Of a stretch of 64,000 bases of DNA, positions 1,400 through 62,851 are shown piece by piece. Location of the stretch: assembly GCA_010015805.1 (NCBI GenBank), contig ML978121.1, positions 3,224,001 through 3,288,000 on the forward strand. The letters are read 5' to 3'. The position numbers were made by a program, and so were the translations under genes. Each line of letters begins with the position of its first letter. The first letter of the stretch is position 1. Under the pieces are notes generated by a model. It had not been told where the DNA came from and made no database searches. It was given only the letters and a program-made list of their open reading frames with translations. The DNA is from Rhizodiscina lignyota (Eukaryota).

Positions 1400-3169
1400 T
1401 TAAGTCTCTTTATACGCATCCGCGGTTCTCGCTCTTGCTTCCTCTAGCAGATCGTCCAATTCTTCCTTCGGAATTCGAGGCACAAGCCTCACTTTAAAGT
1501 CCCGTGGAATGGCCACCAGTGCCGTCTTGAACTTGTTGTATTCCACATAGTCCGTGTTCGGCGGCTCCGTTTCGCTCGCCTCAATCCGGTACACCGTCAG
1601 TAGACGCACCAACGCCGTGTAGAGCAGGCGATGCGCGATGTAGATGCCCGAGCAGGCGCGCGAGCCAGCGCCAAAGGAGAAGTGCTGGATGCCAGTGGAC
1701 GGCGTTTCCGTGGGCGGGTCGAGAGAGTCGAACCAGCGCTCGGGGTTGAATGTGGATGCGGACGGGCCGAAGTGTGATACATCTTGTAAATGTCAGTGCC
1801 CTGAATTAGGCAGAGTTTGGAGGGGTTGGAGCCATACCATGGTTCGCAGCCTGAGCATTTATCAACACCATCGTCTTCGCCGGAATGATGGCGCCGTCCC
1901 ATTCGACATCCGTGACCGTCTTCCTCGGCAGGCTCATCGCCGATACAGTGTAGAACCTTGCGGCCTCCTTTACGATCGCATTCACATACGGGATCTTCTC
2001 CTCTATGAAGCTCGTGCGCCATGCATCTTTCACATCAGGATAATATCTCTTGATGTCCTCATACGCCTCGTCTTGGAATTTCTGGCCCTCCGTCGTACAC
2101 AAAGATCCAATGCACGATGTCAGAGTACCAGGAATGGTCTCGAATCCACCGCTCACGAGACTTAGACAAATGCTGCTTACTTCCACGCCTGTCAGCTTCG
2201 TCTCTTCATCTTTTAAGATTGCTGCAGAAATGCATGGCTTGTCGGTGCCACGCTTGATCATGTCCCTCACGCGATCTAGCAGCTCGTTCAAGTACTTGTC
2301 GCGCCTATCTCGCAAATTTTTACTGCGTGCCGTCTTCTCGTTGTTCGGCATCCATCGCAGCAGCGGGATATAGTCTTGGTAATTCTCGCTCGCGCTTCGC
2401 AGCAGACTGATCGCAGAACCAACTTCAAGGATCTCGCGGAGCATCTCATCCCAGACACTGTCCATCCTGATTCCATAGCAAAGCGTCAACGTCGTATTCA
2501 GCGCATACCGTTGAAAATACGGCCGAATATTCAACTCCGTGACGCCATCCCCTCCATCGCGCGCAAGATCTCTCAGAATACAGTAGCTCTCGAGATCAAA
2601 CATCGGGAAATACGTCTTGATCGCCGGCCGTCCCAGCGCTTGCCCTGTCGCCTTCCTCTTATTCTTGCAGCTCTCGTCCCACGGGCTGCTTCCAATCGTG
2701 AAGCCCTGCGTACTACTGATAACGCCGTGGAATGTGTAAAGCTTCGGCCGATCGATGATGGCAGACTGATTTCCCCGCTCGGTCAGCATGCGCTTGCAGT
2801 CGTCGAAGGAGTTGACGACCACGGCGCGCGTGTTGCCTAGTCGGATTTGGAAGACGGAGTGCTTGTATTGCTTCCACCATTTTTCGCATACGGTGGCGTG
2901 GTCCTCGCCGAGGGAGAGAAGATGGCCGACGATTGGGAGTGCGCCGGGCGCTTCTGGGAGGTTGTAGATGAAGGGGATGTCGGTGTAGGTAAAATACTAG
3001 AACTTTATAAGTCACAATACTACAGGTTTGAATGTGTTTGGCACGAAGAGATTTGAAGACAGCTTACTCGCCAGAGCGCAATGATCAAGAATGGGAGAAG
3101 GCTGAGAGCGATATAGGTCAATTGAGGACCTGACAGATTGAAAGACTTCAAATCTGATATCTCGGCCAT
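1400..3169 (-). CDS. Cytochrome P450, CYP504-like (phenylacetate hydroxylase family)
   Basis: N-terminal TM exon MAEISDLK...IIALWR; introns at about 3067-2997 and 1837-1783. Contains TFHGVISSTQGFTIGSSPWDESCK, an ExxR motif (KEAAR) and the heme motif FGAGSRACSG. Confidence 0.88.
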
Positions 3170-3540
3170 CCTGAACGACACTTGAAAGTTCCAACTTGAC
3201 CCAATTGACTTGAACGGCTCCTTGCTTCCTCAGAAGAAGCTGAAAGTGAGGTTGAATGACAATTCAAGATATCGGCAATGGTCTACTTATCCTAGCTTGC
3301 GGAAGTCATTATACATAGCGCTAAAGAGGATTGGGTAATTAGATGCGTCAGATAAGCTCCGGCATGGATATCAACGACGTGCAGGTGGGTTGAAGGGAAG
3401 TTTCCCCGTCACGCGTCAAGCGGGGCTGGCGATATCAACGTGCGAAGAATGGAGGACGCGGAGCAGTTCCGGCTTCGAAGCGGAAGCCCGGCATTAGCTT
3501 CACTCGGGCCGATCAGATCAGAAGTCCATACTCATCAGTA

Positions 3541-3683
3541 GATATGAAGTGGCTAAAACGCGAAGAGTACAAAAAGAGCCTACTAAAAATTTGATATAGG
3601 CTTTTAAAGATCTAGAGAAATTAAGCTATACTCTAAATGGTAAATTTATATAGGCCCTTTTCGAGTTTAAGCCACTTCATATC
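3541..3683. mobile_element. MITE-like element with 24-bp terminal inverted repeats and TA flanks
   Basis: TA|GATATGAAGTGGCTAAAACGCGAA ... TTCGAGTTTAAGCCACTTCATATC|TA, 22/24 inverted match. AT-rich interior with no ORF. Confidence 0.7.
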
Positions 3684-3980
3684 TATGGCTTCGATTAGAT
3701 GCCTAGAGACTAGATTATTTAGAAGAGGCTTCCTCTACCAAGAGGGTTTGAATGTCAGGGGGAATTATTGTGGGTGGCAACACAGCAATGGGAAGATTCT
3801 GTAAACAGAACAATATGCTTCGCAGGACTAGTACATGATATATTCAAGCGCATATACAGATATAAAACACGCTGATGATAGATGCAGTATATTCACAGAG
3901 TGCAAAGGAGGTCACAATCATGTCCACTGGCGCATGTCCTTCTCATATCCATCATCTCATCAGGGAGACAAGTGCTGCTC

Positions 3981-5252
3981 TCAAATAGGACGGTCGTCTC
4001 CCAGCCTCTTATCAGTGACATGTCCATCCAAAATCTCACTTGGAACCAAACTGCCCCTGTCGATTAACACCTCCGTTCCCGGATGGTGTCGAAAGACGGT
4101 TGCCTCGCTCAGGTTTGTTCGGTGTCTCGGTCCAGCATCCTTCGGCATATCAGGCTCCTCAGGGTTGGTCTGCTTCATATGTCTCTGAAAGGATTCTTCG
4201 TCTATCCGGCCGGCTTGGTTGCCAACCCAAGATTCCACTGTGCGAAAGCGCGCGATCGACGAGCGGGCAGTGGCGACGCTGTAGCGTTGGTTCGGCACTG
4301 TGTCATTCGTCACTGTCGCGGGGGTCCGAGGGGCCTGCGAGTTTGTCCAGGAGAAACGCGATGTCTCGTGTGGAGGACGGCGAGTGGGGAGGTTTCTCGC
4401 GCCTTTCAGGTATGATGGCAATGATGTCGGGGAATCTGCCTCTTCGTCATCGTATGGTGTGTCTGCATCCGTGACGATGCGCGCATTTGATGGCATTGCA
4501 GGTGATCTTGCGACAGCACTATCAGCAGGACTTTTCCGAATTGGCCAGTTTCCAGCGCCAGAATCAGATGGTCTTCGCTGCTGTGACCTTTGTAAAGATC
4601 GCTGCGAATTTGCCGAATTGTTTCGCGTCAAGGTGGCCGAAGGTCTCGGAGGAAGCGTTGCCAAACCAGTCATCGTCCGCTCGTGGATATCCTGTGCTTG
4701 AAGTGGAATCTTCCGATCCCATTCTGTTCCAGCAGCGCTCCATCGACCCAAAGGTGGTGTAACCTCCCCTATTGTCTTATAACGACTCCGCTTCTTAAAC
4801 ATGCAAGCTTCCGTCAGGCACATCCCTTGTCTCATCCGAATCACTATCCAAACCGCAAATATGACTAGTAATGTTGCTCCTATGAATAAGTCAGCATTGA
4901 GAGAATGTCAGACGCTTCTGCAATTCCTCGAACCTATTGAGCCAACAGCAATCAGCGTGTGTTCTGTACCCTCCGACATCCCACCATATTTCATTCCTGA
5001 GGGACTCGGTCCAAGAGGAGTTGGCTGCAGAGTAACGAAGACAGTTGGTTGCGTTGTGGAAGAAGCTTGTGTCTCTGTCATGGCTGAAGGTAATCGCGGT
5101 TGCAGATATGCTTGGGTAGCTGAGTTGTCCGCGTGTTCTATCGGATTCCTCTTTCGCAACGGGCTACTTCTCAGCAGCGATCGTACGACGTTGGTGTTCA
5201 AGTTGGCATTACGAGTTGCGCGCTGGCGATCAGGCGACCCAACGAGTCGCAT
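3981..5252 (-). CDS. Fungal single-pass membrane protein of unknown function (start at 5252 or 5081)
   Basis: Exon ending LIAVGSIG, intron at about 4933-4880, then ATLLVIFAVWIVIRMR (TM) and a long S/P/R-rich tail containing RFRTVESWV. Confidence 0.6.
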
Positions 5253-6577
5253 TTCGATATTCCATCAAATTCCTTCGCTGTTCTCAAGGAGCGCGGTAAC
5301 GTTCCGACTCTCCAATGTCCCGATTTATTTTCTCCGCTCTTATTGCAGATGGAGAGAGGATGTATGTAGATTAAAAGGCGTTAAAGGCGTTAGGTCGGCT
5401 AGATTTCGTCAAAGAAAAATGAGTGATAATTAGAGACAAACCAACAGGCCAGCTGCAGCTCTGAGGATAAGTAAAAAGACTTGAAAGAAAGGAAGACAGG
5501 CGGAGATGTGGAGGACAATAGAGTGTCAGCTCTGCTGTGCCATTGGGTTTCAGAATGAGCAAAAACCTGTCTCGCACACAGCCAGGCCAAGGCCTCTTTT
5601 AGAGATGAGTGAGTTTTCGGCGCCTCAAAACAAAGAGTCCAGCAAGACCCTGCTCGTCTGAGAGGGACACCACCAACATTAGAAGCGAGCGAAACATGTC
5701 AAGAGGGGCTTCCAATGGCGAAAGGGGCTGAACTTCTGGAGACGCGGCCAGGGACTCGTCGCCAACCTGAAGAAACACTGAGCCCATACGAAAGGGGATG
5801 CATTGCTGCTGAAAGTGGTCTGGCGTAGTCTCGGGTGGGTGAGGCTCAAGCAGTTCGCGTTTCAGGTCCTCCACGGCTGTATGTTTGCGATCGGGGGAAT
5901 GAGAAGGACTCTCAAATACTGGCCGCCACCAGAGCGCAATGCTTTCATAAGTCGATCCTTCAGGCTATCACGAACAATGCCAAATGTTAGACCCGCGAAT
6001 TTGGAATATCTCGTCCATATTGCGAGCGTGTTGCGTTGAAGAGAGATTCTCAAACCGGAAAAGCCTAAATTGAACAATCACGTGCGTGTGAATCACGTGG
6101 CGGGCGCTGGATCTTTCCCAATTTGCTGTAGCTCGTGGCAGGCGTCAAGCCACAATGCTTCGTCTGAACCTCGCAAAGAGTCTACAGAAAGGAAAGCGTT
6201 CGAGCGGATTCCGCTTCTTTCCGCCCAACAACTCGCACCGCCATTCGATGACGAAGTGCGGGAGTACCAGTCGCGATTGGCTGTTGGGGGCTAAGCCACC
6301 GTCTTCTGGAGGCTGTGATCACTCACAGCCTTGGGCCTCTCGGCTGGACCGGCGTTACGGCACATGTTCAGCCCATTTGATCACACACTACGTATGCAGG
6401 TCAGTTAGGTAAGGAAGTACGAGCCAGCTTAGCGGGGTATATATCGCAACATCACTGCGCTGCCATCAGCTCTTTCCTTCTACCATCCTACAACTCAACT
6501 CAAGTTCCATTTAAACTTCGAAGTTCATTCAATCCCGCCACTCTTCGCGACCTCACTTCACTTCAATCACACTCAAA

Positions 6578-58482: not shown

Positions 58483-61400
58483 TCATTGAATATGGACTTT
58501 GGTTTGTACTCCATCCAGAATGATGTGTCGTCTTACCAAAGCGCCCACTCCGACTCTCTCCCAGACTTCGACACCGTCGACAAAAGCAAAAAACACAATA
58601 ATCAAAACGTAACACACACGGCTATCTCCGCGTGTTGGAGACTTGTCCTCTCCAACAATCACGCACTTGAGAAATCGAGGAAGTTTGCGGCCAGGCTCAT
58701 CCAGGAGAATCTTTTCGCTGTGCGGCTCCAGAAGATCGTATGCCGGTGCTTCAATCTCGAGCCCTATCGTCCCCTCACTTCCCTCCATCACCGTTTCATT
58801 AGATCTATCTAGCTTTTTGGCTTTAGCAAACGGTGAAACGATGTCTTCCCGCCACGAAACTCCGCCATAAGGTACGTCCATGTATCGAATGCCGCCGTCG
58901 TACGCCATCCAAGACCAAGAGGGAACTCGCATGCCGTGGAACTCGCCAATGCGCTTTACCCTATCTCCTGTTCGCTGCCAGAGTAGGCAGCGATGCAAGT
59001 AGAGCTCAAAGACGCCATAGCCGCCCGCCGTGCGGAAGGTTTGGCTCAGTCTCGACTCCAGCCCCCTGATTGCGACCGGCCTGTCCGCCGAAAATGAAAG
59101 TGCGAGCTTGGAGTACCGCTCATAGAGGTCCTGATACAGCTCTATTTTCATCCCCTTGACGTATGCATCGACGGAATGAGGGAAGTTCGAGTCCCCGAGA
59201 AAAGATGCTTTCCGGCTTTGATGCTTCAAGTCAGCGCAGCTTGAGGGACTGCAGCTATAGCTGCATTGCAGACACCGGAGTACATACTTTTTGGACTTTG
59301 TCAAAGTTTCGCACCTCACACCCCCTCCACACTCCCAATACGACTGGGTTTCAGTGAAATAGATTGTCCTTCGGGAAAGAGCTCGCTCTTGTAACACCCA
59401 TCCTCTCATATTCAGCTCGCCTTGGTCAACATGGTTATGAAAGTCGTCGATCGATTCGTAAAGATAATACAAAGAGGAGCTGTGAGGGTTTACCAGGGTC
59501 ACACCATGCCTCGCCGGTGGGGCCTTAAGGAAGGAATCGTCGACTCCTCGGGCACAGCTAGCGGCAAGAGTGCAGTATGCCGAGCTGAAGACCTGTTCCA
59601 TAAACTTCGATTCTCGTTCCCAGTCACACGGGTCATTTTGGATGATGCAGAGAGAATCAACCCAGAGGTATCGAACCCCCAGGCTGCGGGTAATGTGGAC
59701 AGCGTCTTGAAATGTCCTGGGGAGAGCGGCGATGCTAATGTTTTTCTTCAGCTCTTCAATGTTGGATTTGTAGGTGCAGAACTTTCGATGCTGTCCTGGC
59801 GGGCCCCATTGATGTGACAAGGCCATGTATTTTATCGGTGTAGTCTGACCGTTAGATTCGCTTGATAGACGGATGACTGCCTGGTCTTCGTCTCCAACAT
59901 CCAGGAGGCGGGTTGGGACAAATCTGAGGTTTTGAGGATAACATTGGTGCATTCTGTCGCAGCTGTGGATCCACTCTGCCAGGATCTTGATATGTGGTGT
60001 ACTACCAGCGGGAGGCAGTATTGGAAATCCGATCTGGGTACTGTGCGAAGACAAAGTTTGGGGTCCTTCGCGAGCATTAGAATTATGACATACCACTCAG
60101 AATGTGTATAACTTGCCTGGCAATGTATAAAGGGAAGCAATTGGTTGACCACGGTTGTCGCCAAAAGTCAAATACGAAGCGACTCTAGAGAACTGGATAG
60201 GATAATCAGGTCCAGGCACACGTTCTTTCATGAGCCTTGACAGCAATCGACAAAGAGCACAGTAGCCAGCCTTCTTGACCAACCCTGCCAGAGTATCAGA
60301 GAATGTCTCCCTCAAATTCCAAAGTCGGAGGCAGCTGCATCGTTGACATAGATCGGAAATCTTCTTAGTCGCTGATGAAATGGCACTCGAATCAAAATGG
60401 TCGAAATATGCATATGCAGCGTCGTGATCGGGAGTATACTCCCAACTGTCGTTCAGCTGCTGGCTGTCAGTTATCGCATTCGCACCAATTGAAGATGCAG
60501 AGCCTTTTGTCCGTACTTACTGGCTAGAAAATATTAGCAAGAGGGTGTCAGGCATTGTACTCAGTGAGCAACAGTTTTAATAATCAGAGAGCTGAAGCTG
60601 GTTCAACCAACGTACCGTCTGCACAACTAGTGTAAGGCAAAGTGTGTAAATCTTAGTCTCAATTTCTCTGACTTACAAACTATCACAGATTAAATGTTAG
60701 CAGATTTGTCTCTAGTGTGTTTGGCTCCGGGGGGCAAAGCTTACCATCTATTAAAAAAAAATGAATTGACGTCTTCGTTATTTGCATTTCCAAGTGCTCT
60801 GACATATGGACTAAGGCTGACCTACGTACTGAAAGATACTCAGTATTTAACAATTCATATGGATGGTAACAAACCTACTTCCTTTCTCCGTGAAAATGAC
60901 GACAGTTAGATATCACGTTGCTGGGCGCGTCATGCTGGAACACTCACATTCTACAACGTACTTTTAGCATAAAGTAATCATTTGTCCACTTCGATACGAA
61001 TTACCGTACCCGATGAGGTTGGCCCAAAGGTACCTTGAGAGTACTGTCCCCTGATCCAGCCGGTGGTCCTGCGGATGGTTTTGCGTCAAAATTCATCCAC
61101 TTGCATTTGCCTGAAGTCACATCGTCAATGATTTTGCGTAGAGTTACTCGCATCCCTCGAGATGTCCAACGGGGTTGAACTGATGGATTGTAGGCCGAGC
61201 TAAATCTTCCTGTGAGTGTCTCTGTGTCTGCCCGGACAATCACATGAGGCGTATCAGCCCCAGTGCCAAGAAGTGGCTCAGAGTTCGGAGGAGGATCAAG
61301 GTTGTTGCCATTTCGCTCAAACACGTAGCCGGGGTCCTCCATGTCGTAGTCCTTAACATTGACCGTCAGAAGCTTTGCAGAAATGAGGTCAATCAAACGT

Positions 61401-62851
61401 CTGATTGCTGAGCTCTCTGGACAGCAATCTTCCTCCTTGATATAGTCTGTCCACCTTTTGACGTCGCCATGAACATCTACGGTCTTGTTGTCTCTGACAT
61501 AGTACGCTTCGAGAGGTCCCGTGAACCGCGCCAAACCTTCTACGCCATATAACAGCCAAATGACGAATTCCAGGTATATGCAGCCCATGGCCCATACGTC
61601 GTACCGCCGTGGTCTTGGCTGCAATGGATTCAATGGATTCGGTGCTGCCTCAGGAGCCAGGTATACCAAAGTTCCGCCGGTGGGATTCGTATGCTTACGC
61701 ATCTCGGTAACGATTTGATGAACAGTAGCGAGTCCGAGATCTGCAACGACAAGGATATCGTTGTTGCTCCCATCTTTGAAACAGAGAATATTTTCCGGTT
61801 TCAGATCACCATGACGACATTTCTTTGTATGATGTAAAAGATCGAGAGCCATAGCCAGGCCATAGAGTTGGTTGAAAACCCACTCGAGATAGCTCTTCTC
61901 CAATCTTGGAGGATCCCCTCTCCACACATTCCGGAGACTACCATTTTCAGCCCATGGAAACACAAAATGGTGAGTTTCGTTCAATCTGTAGTACGCAATT
62001 GTCCTGATCAAGTGCGGATATTCTAACTCTTTCATCAGTTTGAGCATTTCCACTTCCTTTCCAGCTTGGTCGTTAAGCTCTTCCTTATTCATTTGCGGTT
62101 TCAATATCTTGACTGCAACGCGCGGGTGTCCCTCAGATTCGGCTAGATTAAACTGGAAGCCATTAGCTTATCTTTTACCACCATCAATTTACCCCCCCCC
62201 CCCCAAAAGGTTTCATACAATAATATCATGTTGAAGATAATCTCGATGTATCCTGCGTTCCTTCACCTCGCTGAACTGTGTGCTGGCAGTGATGTTATCC
62301 CTGGTATCTACGAATGGGAGGCGAGTGTTCTTAGAAAAACTGTACTCGAATTTCTCTTTCTGGAATACTGGTGCCAAGAATAGGTGTTGATAGCGCATGA
62401 ATTGCTGGCCCCGGCCCGACGTCAATGAATCTAAGCTTAAAGTACCAAGGGGGTCGTTGGTACACTCAGATTCAGCAGTCGAAGTCTGATTTTCCTTGTC
62501 CCATTTCAGGCTAATGGGTAGTGTGCTGTCATCTATTCCTCGTTTGTGGAACCAATGGATCAACTCCAGACTGCATTCAGCCAAGACGATGGTTGCGAAT
62601 ATCTTGGTCGCCTTCCCGCAAATGAACTCCATCAGATCTCCAATCGTTGATTTCTTTTCGCACTGTTCTTTCGACTTGTATGACGCTTTCGATTCGAATG
62701 ACTCTAAGACCTCCTTCACGGCTGGTTCTGACAGGACATCTCGCAAGCTCTTCTCTGGAATGATGCCAGGAGGAGGCAAGAGTCCATCGTCATCACATGA
62801 TGGTTCAAGAATGTCCTGGATCTTGTCTCTCAATCGTTGCATTGGATCCAT
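58483..62851 (-). CDS. Protein kinase-HET domain fusion (about 1216 aa from the first in-frame ATG; frame is open up to about 63058), with a seven-microexon linker
   Basis: Kinase motifs VAVK, HGDLKPEN, DLG, APE, DVWAMG. HET motifs PTRLLDV, YMALSHQWG, LPRTFQDAV, YLWVDSLCIIQ, RGWVLQERALS. Exons 62851-62219, 62152-61010, seven 3-nt exons, 60459-60117, 60065-59288 and 59215-58483 sum to 3651 nt in frame. Confidence 0.82.
60457..61009 (-). other. Array of eight short introns separated by seven 3-nt exons
   Basis: tag|AAT|gtgagt (60950-48), aag|GAA|gtaggt (60881-79), cag|TAC|gtaggt (60828-26), tag|ATG|gtaagc (60747-45), tag|TTT|gtaagt (60679-77), cag|ACG|gtacgt (60618-16), tag|CCA|gtaagt (60523-21). 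Confidence 0.8.

Follow-up and report, generated by a model that had tools for sequence, protein, structure and literature searches.

A one-codon exon array between the kinase and HET domains of a gene in Rhizodiscina lignyota

How can a protein kinase and a HET cell-death domain belong to one protein when a gap of 553 nt separates their reading frames? The question is posed by a stretch of 64,000 nt from the fungus Rhizodiscina lignyota (GenBank assembly GCA_010015805.1, contig ML978121.1, positions 3,224,001 to 3,288,000; here called the window, to which all positions given without a locus name refer), in which the gap occupies 61009..60457 of the minus strand. A preliminary description, made from the letters alone, had proposed that the gap is filled by introns leaving single codons between them. 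The kinase-HET one-codon exon array is real and, as a gene structure, highly unusual, and the gap very probably consists of eight short spliceosomal introns and seven exons of one codon each, all in phase 0.

Splice signals in the gap

Four open reading frames (ORFs) of the window, for an N-terminal domain, the kinase, a region N-terminal to HET and HET itself, match, in the same order, single proteins of ~1000-1400 aa found in many Pezizomycotina. Fused homologues occur in named genera including Colletotrichum, Fusarium, Cadophora, Lindgomyces and Pleomassaria, and the locus has the makeup of this kinase-HET fusion family, with all four parts in line in one protein. Since the four-part fusion is conserved in single proteins, splicing across the gap must connect the kinase with HET. 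The joined gene is an intact 12-exon model at 62851..58483 (-), with 3651 nt, 1216 aa and its sole stop codon at the end, and it aligns end to end with the proteins P0004, P0009 and P0002. The linkage of kinase and HET in one gene, as first proposed, is supported by this conserved architecture and by arrays in relatives that differ by synonymous change (see below).

The kinase exon ends ...CCT CAT CGG at 61010 (-), and the first donor follows directly. From there the gap divides without remainder into eight intron-sized units, whose lengths, donors and acceptors are given in Table 1. Each acceptor stands exactly 3 nt from the next donor, and the triplets so enclosed, AAT GAA TAC ATG TTT ACG CCA, read N-E-Y-M-F-T-P, giving the spliced linker PHR-NEYMFTP-(Q)LNDSWEY. 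On re-reading of the minus strand, the lengths, donors, acceptors, 3-nt spacing and linker peptide of the preliminary description all match. Branch motifs, read by eye, conform to a strict CTRAY in units 2, 5, 7 and 8 and to a one-off variant in the other four. The layout is that of a codon-sized microexon array, with tandem 3-nt exons between short canonical GT-AG introns, in the window as well as in its relatives. It is not that of recursive splicing, where AG directly precedes GT, as 3 nt always lie between the two, nor that of a stwintron, as the eight units each have a complete donor and acceptor and do not overlap. At the last acceptor there is a tandem CAGCAG (60457-60462, minus strand), so that one Gln may be present in the product or absent; the 64-nt form of the last array intron is favoured because relatives pass directly from P to L and lack the Gln.

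An alternative would be two genes, the kinase ending PHRVR-stop (61001-61003) and HET starting within the gap, for example at the ATG 60747-60745. The kinase frame does meet a TAA two codons into the first array intron, and the fourth triplet is ATG both in the window and in the relative L001. However, this ATG is not conserved, with AAT, AAG, CGG or AGA in others, and a start there would still require three 3-nt exons; moreover, no Met precedes the conserved LNDSWEY in the downstream ORF (60516..60100), and the fusion architecture is kept in dozens of proteins and loci. Two separate genes are, on this evidence, scarcely credible. Translation of HET alone from an ATG within array intron 7 (MPDTLLLIFSS...) was likewise dropped, as it would require an acceptor 2-3 nt past the branch site.

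The arrangement had been judged very unlikely to occur by chance, and this is borne out. The pattern AG-NNN-GT occurs 10 times in 61100..60400, where its window-wide density predicts ~2 per 550 nt. When consecutive junctions (acceptor, 3 nt, donor) are linked into chains at spacings of 45-120 nt on both strands of the window, a chain of seven junctions appears once, and all remaining junctions are isolated. Control sets of 300 first-order Markov sequences of 64 kb each, one set per composition, reach a maximum of three: the longest chain is 1 in 235 sequences, 2 in 64 and 3 in 1 with the composition of the window, and 1 in 161, 2 in 133 and 3 in 6 with that of the gap itself.

Arrays in related loci and their peptide

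The scan of related kinase-HET loci for repeated AG-NNN-GT units suggested in the preliminary description was run on 80 metagenome loci retrieved with a HET alignment (562,755 nt), and arrays were found in the same place. Under a strict splice pattern, with both strands scanned, chains of at least three one-codon exons occur on the gene strand and none on the opposite strand. They are present in 36 of the 80 loci (range 3-22 exons), in-frame stops being excluded and with them the chain of L080, which contains a TAA triplet; 29 distinct arrays are left after dropping 7 near-duplicate contigs. The distance from the end of the chain to the HET match downstream is 423-660 nt in all 36, and of the 46 loci that have kinase homology upstream, 27 contain a chain. 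Within the clade of the window the arrays read HEYMFTP (L001), NEYNFTP (L006), DEYKFTP (L010), NEYRFVA (L017), NEYRFAP (L020), NQYRFTA (L003) and NQYRFTG (L037). Their length is constant at seven, an additional first exon 'P' in the chain scan of L010 being spurious. More distant clades have DEYRNA, ETYT, NTYTHEN, DSYKHPP and similar arrays, and the Tyr is nearly invariant. The HET regions of loci sharing the array are only ~35-60% identical to that of the window.

Between loci, the triplets have an identity of 0.52-0.95 (at least 0.71 in 11 of 12 pairs), frequently above that of 150 nt of flanking exon, while pairwise aligned intron interiors have 0.28-0.61, compared with 0.20-0.32 in shuffled controls. 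Codon differences number 8 synonymous and 0 nonsynonymous among L013, L027 and L056 (all DEYRNA), and 6 and 0 among L029, L035 and L042 (all ETYT); for single-base changes to the seven codons of the window, the synonymous share is just 16%. The Arg found at the fourth position has two codons in arrays, CGG and AGA, and a third, AGG, in L008.

The same peptide also occurs in larger exons (a slash marks an intron). In L002, which reads D/EYKFT/PLDDNWEY with two introns, GAA TAT AAG TTC ACT form a single 15-nt exon, Asp lying in the upstream and Pro in the downstream exon. L008, with three introns, reads LKRNEY/RFT/PLDDNWEY (AAT GAA TAT, intron, AGG TTT ACT, intron, CCG CTT GAC), and L023 reads EYEHT/PLNNKWEY. 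The parser of exon/intron paths is noisy and was used for these three loci only, L002 and L008 being read by eye as well; it gave no path or an ambiguous one for L049, L004, L058, L044, L046, L074, L075 and L079. The linker comparison leaves out L038, L049, L075 and L079. L002 is the sister of L010 (Shimodaira-Hasegawa-like approximate likelihood ratio test, SH-aLRT, 99 in a quick tree), and DEYKFTP is encoded in both, with 2 introns vs 8. Intron 1 of the L010 array (about 3955-4016) is of GC-AG type, CCT/GCAAGT...TTCAG/GAT; at the corresponding junction L002, which has only 2 of the 8 introns, reads GAT/GTAAGC. A homologous motif without any intron is found in eight loci, for example DYEHPSLDPEEWEF (L074) and ADYTLPPLKDWEF (L014), and has split counterparts in D-S-Y-K-H-P-P/FDDIWE (L067) and Y-L-H-P/LNDDWEF (L064).

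Since the arrays are conserved, their codon changes are often synonymous and the same peptide recurs in larger exons or in intron-free form, the seven codons are almost certainly translated. Conservation of the peptide across deeply diverged relatives, sometimes without introns, further suggests that the full seven-codon peptide is the product under selection, and points to selection for the all-inclusive product and not for variety.

Origin and splicing of the array

Statistics were taken from 194 introns of 26 arrays, and these are ordinary short introns. Their length is 46-132 nt (median 67); GTAAGT is the donor in 74 and GTGAGT in 26; the acceptors are TAG (97), CAG (69), AAG (27) and GAG (1); and the branch motif is a strict CTRAY in 148, a weaker variant in 41 and absent in 5. 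Retention would introduce a stop or shift the frame in 190 of the 194, and in the window in eight of eight, the first doing so after two codons.

How arrays can arise is seen directly in two loci. In L072, which is HET-only, the array (5084-5558) is a 68-nt tandem repeat of 6.1 copies with 86% matches, each unit being one intron plus one codon (CGT or CTT), and a 206-nt super-unit has 94% matches. Its first triplets, GAG TAT CGT (E-Y-R), match the E-Y-R of kinase-HET arrays. L040, a HET gene without upstream kinase homology, has 22 consecutive one-codon exons at 2750-4113, RKFDPALSDILDMALPIDSICS, and introns of 51-72 nt with a visible common consensus; an upstream ORF in this locus, with the zinc-protease-like motif HEFGHVLGAEHEH, is apparently a gene of its own. 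Similarity among introns of the same array is marked in both (z 39 in L072, z 22 in L040) and ranges from z -0.3 to 3.3 in the 11 other arrays tested. A minisatellite is thus found in L072 and L040; Tandem Repeats Finder reports no tandem repeat in the array of the window. The array in the window would also have begun as a tandem duplication of an intron-plus-codon unit, each copy adding one residue and keeping the frame, which is inferred only, because similarity is seen just in L072 and L040 and its own introns give z 1.1. For intron evolution, L072 and L040 are clear cases of introns multiplying by tandem duplication and L010 vs L002 is a case of patchy loss between close relatives, so the relatives display both growth and loss of such arrays.

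Each of the three main kinase-HET clades contains arrays, as does the HET-only pair, and intron-free clades are nested among them. The tree is a quick search with 62 rows and a midpoint root, from which 13 near-duplicates were removed, as was any locus with a HET match beginning after query residue 30. With this distribution parsimony favours an old array and repeated loss; the array of the window is probably old and has probably been lost, partly or completely, in several lineages.

Several observations weigh against this account. The eight introns of the window have no detectable mutual similarity, and the direction, loss and not gain, is a parsimony argument from a quick midpoint-rooted tree. 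The pairwise codon counts share ancestry, so they are not phylogenetically independent, though their direction is plain. Among the splice signals of the window, the first donor (GTACGG) and the acceptor of the second intron (AAG) are weak, and a strict branch motif is present in four of eight. A search of RNA runs for the locus gave no run containing it, and the single run found consists of DNA contigs that are identical to the window, of which they are probably the source, and has no joints. None of 63 proteins from a search of all libraries has the spliced peptide, most of them being ORF calls that start in the last array intron, and the N-terminal HET exon of the window has 2 matches among longer library proteins, neither with the spliced peptide. 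Most public gene models of homologues, possibly made without RNA, splice one flanking exon straight to the other.

Such direct joins are ...SKDIV/LDDTWEY in P0009 and ...KDQE/PLDDNWKY in P0003. P0004 reads ...KDITFLTNMLQFLDDNWEY, where a comparison with L006, a close relative, suggests that the 3' part of intron 5 has been read together with the Phe triplet as one exon. Several of these models agree with a reading in which the 553 nt are removed as one intron and the internal AG-NNN-GT units are relics or splicing intermediates, and a join of 61010 to 60459 or 60456 would stay in frame. However, a single intron leaves unexplained why the triplets are conserved at the amino-acid level beside near-random intron interiors, and why the same peptide stands in longer exons or intron-free genes; furthermore, a ligated triplet forms no new donor and could not be removed later as in recursive splicing. 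One large intron is therefore very unlikely. Gene finders are blind to exons of 3 nt, and the apparent absence or misplacement of array-encoded residues in P0003, P0004 and P0009 is likely to be systematic misannotation. As public models appear to skip or misplace these codons, the conserved motif may be missing from databases, and database proteins of the kinase-HET family may omit it.

Fungi with short introns typically use intron definition. Each array intron would be recognised singly in this way and removed stepwise, and after each removal the neighbouring donor or acceptor would gain an exon of normal size, so that a 3-nt exon would not need to be bound from both sides simultaneously. 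Once ligated, a triplet would not be removable, because the junctions (e.g. CGG/AAT) create no GT donor. For the study of splicing, the array offers a natural, evolutionarily tested example of a coding exon of minimal size, present seven times in a row here and 22 times in L040, and its eight splice-site pairs 3 nt apart make removal order, steric limits and fidelity testable in a fungus.

Skipping might occur, and since all junctions are in phase 0, omission of any exon preserves the frame. To this extent the preliminary description stands, which noted that any subset can be skipped in frame; its further suggestion, of as many as 2^7 linker variants as a possible means of diversifying or tuning a protein of immune type, is disfavoured as the main role by the conservation of the peptide. 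That combinatorial skipping is the purpose of the array is nevertheless a possible reading, if a doubtful one. It is in keeping with the phase 0 junctions, with some weak acceptors such as the AAG of 27 of the 194 introns, with the tandem CAGCAG, and with public models lacking the codons, which would suit an isoform that skips them all; alternative splicing of codon-sized microexons is also described, in the portions available, by papers citing Iotti et al. 2012. It is at odds with a conserved peptide whose codons change synonymously, with the intron-free form in some relatives, which points to selection on the full peptide, and with an array length stable at seven in the clade of the window. 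In the account preferred here, the selected product would include all seven codons.

Role, precedents and the host gene

NEYMFTP makes up the N-terminal half of a short conserved motif, [N/D]-E-Y-x-F-T-P-L-[N/D]-D-x-W-E-Y. AlphaFold2 models were obtained for ORFs of two intron-free relatives, L074 (mean predicted local distance difference test, pLDDT, 72.6) and L014 (75.4, including the HET core). The homologous motif lies in a low-confidence stretch (pLDDT <50) in each, residues 613-670 and 395-436 respectively, and ordered structure starts at the W-E-F after the motif; the context is disordered, and no docking site is seen in the two models. Because both models place the motif below pLDDT 50, the array is predicted to encode the end of a disordered linker, as a short linear motif with a near-invariant Tyr and, in the clade of the window, a Thr-Pro. 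For fungal immunity and cell death, a Tyr-containing linker motif between kinase and HET is a candidate regulatory site; its use by the adjacent kinase for phosphorylation or docking is speculation. A broader proposal, which is unlikely, takes the array as an intron-buffered minisatellite, in which the linker would be altered one residue at a time with the frame kept, through gain or loss of units in DNA or through skipping in RNA. The array would then set the presence and spacing of the Tyr/Thr-Pro motif, and its eight splicing events would gate a HET-bearing protein against a truncated kinase: if this is true, retention of any array intron leads to a stop, hence to the truncated kinase only.

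Very short exons and multiplying introns have been met in other systems. The exons of Schistosoma micro-exon genes (MEGs) are ~6-36 nt long, symmetric, and encode secreted parasite proteins. The present array resembles them in its run of very short symmetric exons with frame-neutral skipping, and differs in that the exons are exactly 3 nt and belong to an intracellular multidomain protein. Intron gain by tandem duplication is known, as are introner-like elements of fungi. The introns of L072 and L040 are likewise copies of a neighbouring intron, but there the unit is a whole intron plus a codon, head to tail, with no exonic AGGT segment and no dispersed element.

Single 3-nt microexons are reported from animals, in Drosophila homothorax (PMC7392893) and human MAP4K5 (PMC8632122). 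As far as the available text of these papers goes, they share with the array one conserved codon that makes up a whole exon between two canonical introns; the animal exons are single and their introns long, in contrast to seven exons here (22 in L040) and introns of 46-132 nt. Recursive splicing and the stwintrons of Pezizomycotina also remove a long stretch in consecutive spliceosomal steps with closely spaced sites (PMC6616335, PMC5587772). In the parts of these accounts at hand, however, recursive sites juxtapose AG and GT and leave nothing, whereas here each step leaves one codon, and a stwintron has one intron inside the splice signal of another, whereas the array introns lie side by side.

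The preliminary description knew of no one-codon array in a fungal allorecognition gene, and in this it had overlooked the nank (NACHT-ANK) family of Tuber melanosporum, whose arrays of codon-sized microexons, the one reported case in a fungal non-self gene family, were described by Iotti et al. 2012 (Fungal Biol 116:261, PubMed id 22289772; cited in PMC3689799, PMC4986451, PMC10197012 and PMC13449251). According to the available passages of these citing papers, tens of 3-bp exons are alternatively spliced as a diversification mechanism in the expanded family of one species. From what they relate, the two cases have in common tandem 3-nt exons, a filamentous ascomycete, a place in the repertoire of non-self recognition and cell death, and frame-neutral exons. 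Unlike nank, the host genes here are kinase-HET and HET-only, and the array of the window's clade is short, fixed at seven and conserved in peptide, a comparison in which nank is known through the citing papers. Relative to nank, what would be new is the gene family, the fixed length and conservation of the array, and the apparent purifying selection on its peptide. A 2024 paper states, in the portion available, that functional microexons have not been described in filamentous fungi (PMC11121469), and full-text literature searches gave no report of codon-sized exon arrays in kinase-HET or HET genes.

The product of the host gene runs from an N-terminal domain through a protein kinase, a disordered linker and a conserved HET-associated region to HET (Table 1). 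The N-terminal domain has no family match in a Pfam search, and among the four ORFs of the window Pfam finds Pkinase and HET only, with no NACHT or ANK match, so the architecture is not NACHT-ANK. The HET match (PF06985, ORF 58486-60096) scores 101.9 bits against a cut-off of 22.5 over the full profile, 1-146; the Pkinase match (PF00069, ORF 61004-62167) scores 84.2 bits against 31.7 and covers only 20-191 of 263 profile positions. In the kinase exon (61600-61650) the catalytic loop reads HGDLKPEN, with HGD and not HRD, and the next motif is DLG and not DFG; HGD is common to the homologues, whose second motif is DVG. From its sequence, the host kinase is possibly atypical, or possibly a pseudokinase.

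Table 1. Exons and introns of the kinase-HET gene of the window
Feature	Position	Strand	Description
Exon 1	62219..62851	-	ATG at 62851, start MDPMQRL; N-terminal domain homologous to N-termini of fused homologues
Intron 1	62153..62218	-	66 nt, GTATGA..CAG, phase 0
Exon 2	61010..62152	-	Kinase domain and C-terminal tail, ends ...PHR; Pkinase E 1.2e-23
Array intron 1	61009-60951	-	59 nt, GTACGG..TAG; if retained, VR then stop
One-codon exon 1	60948..60950	-	AAT (Asn); N, D or H in 8 clade arrays
Array intron 2	60947-60882	-	66 nt, GTGAGT..CTAAC..AAG; L006 acceptor likewise AAG
One-codon exon 2	60879..60881	-	GAA (Glu); GAA, GAG or CAG in relatives
Array intron 3	60878-60829	-	50 nt, GTAGGT..CAG
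One-codon exon 3	60826..60828	-	TAC (Tyr); Tyr in 8/8 clade arrays (TAT 7, TAC 1) and most other arrays
Array intron 4	60825-60748	-	78 nt, GTAGGT..TAG
One-codon exon 4	60745..60747	-	ATG (Met); variable position, M, R, N or K in relatives
Array intron 5	60744-60680	-	65 nt, GTAAGC..CTAAC..TAG
One-codon exon 5	60677..60679	-	TTT (Phe); Phe in 8/8 clade arrays (TTT 6, TTC 2)
Array intron 6	60676-60619	-	58 nt, GTAAGT..CAG
One-codon exon 6	60616..60618	-	ACG (Thr); ACG, ACC or ACT in 6/8 clade arrays
Array intron 7	60615-60524	-	92 nt, GTACGT..CTGAC/CTAAT..TAG
One-codon exon 7	60521..60523	-	CCA (Pro); CCA/CCG in 5/8; joined to downstream exon in L002, L008, L023
Array intron 8	60520-60460 or -60457	-	61 nt (adds Gln) or 64 nt; GTAAGT..CAG or CAGCAG
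Exon 10	60117..60459	-	(Q)LNDSWEY..., conserved region N-terminal to HET, CxxC pairs
GC-AG intron	60066..60116	-	51 nt, GCAAGT..CTAAT..AAG, phase 1; contains in-frame TGA 60097-60099
Exon 11	59288..60065	-	HET domain, E 5.3e-29
Last intron	59216..59287	-	72 nt, GTATGT..CTGAC..AAG, phase 2; removal restores TKSKNRKASFLGD as in P0004
Exon 12	58483..59215	-	C-terminal region; stop codon 58483-58485

The in-frame TGA could be taken as the sign of a pseudogene. This reading was dropped, because the TGA falls within the 51-nt GC-AG intron, relatives having an intron at the same position, and because the protein aligns throughout. At this intron, a gene finder that allows GT-AG introns only would report a broken gene or divide it in two. 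Intron 1 contains a run of ~14 G at 62191-62205 (-). The window is otherwise like an ordinary ascomycete chromosome, with genes for a P450, a GH72 protein, a kinesin, an armadillo-repeat protein and an MFS transporter.

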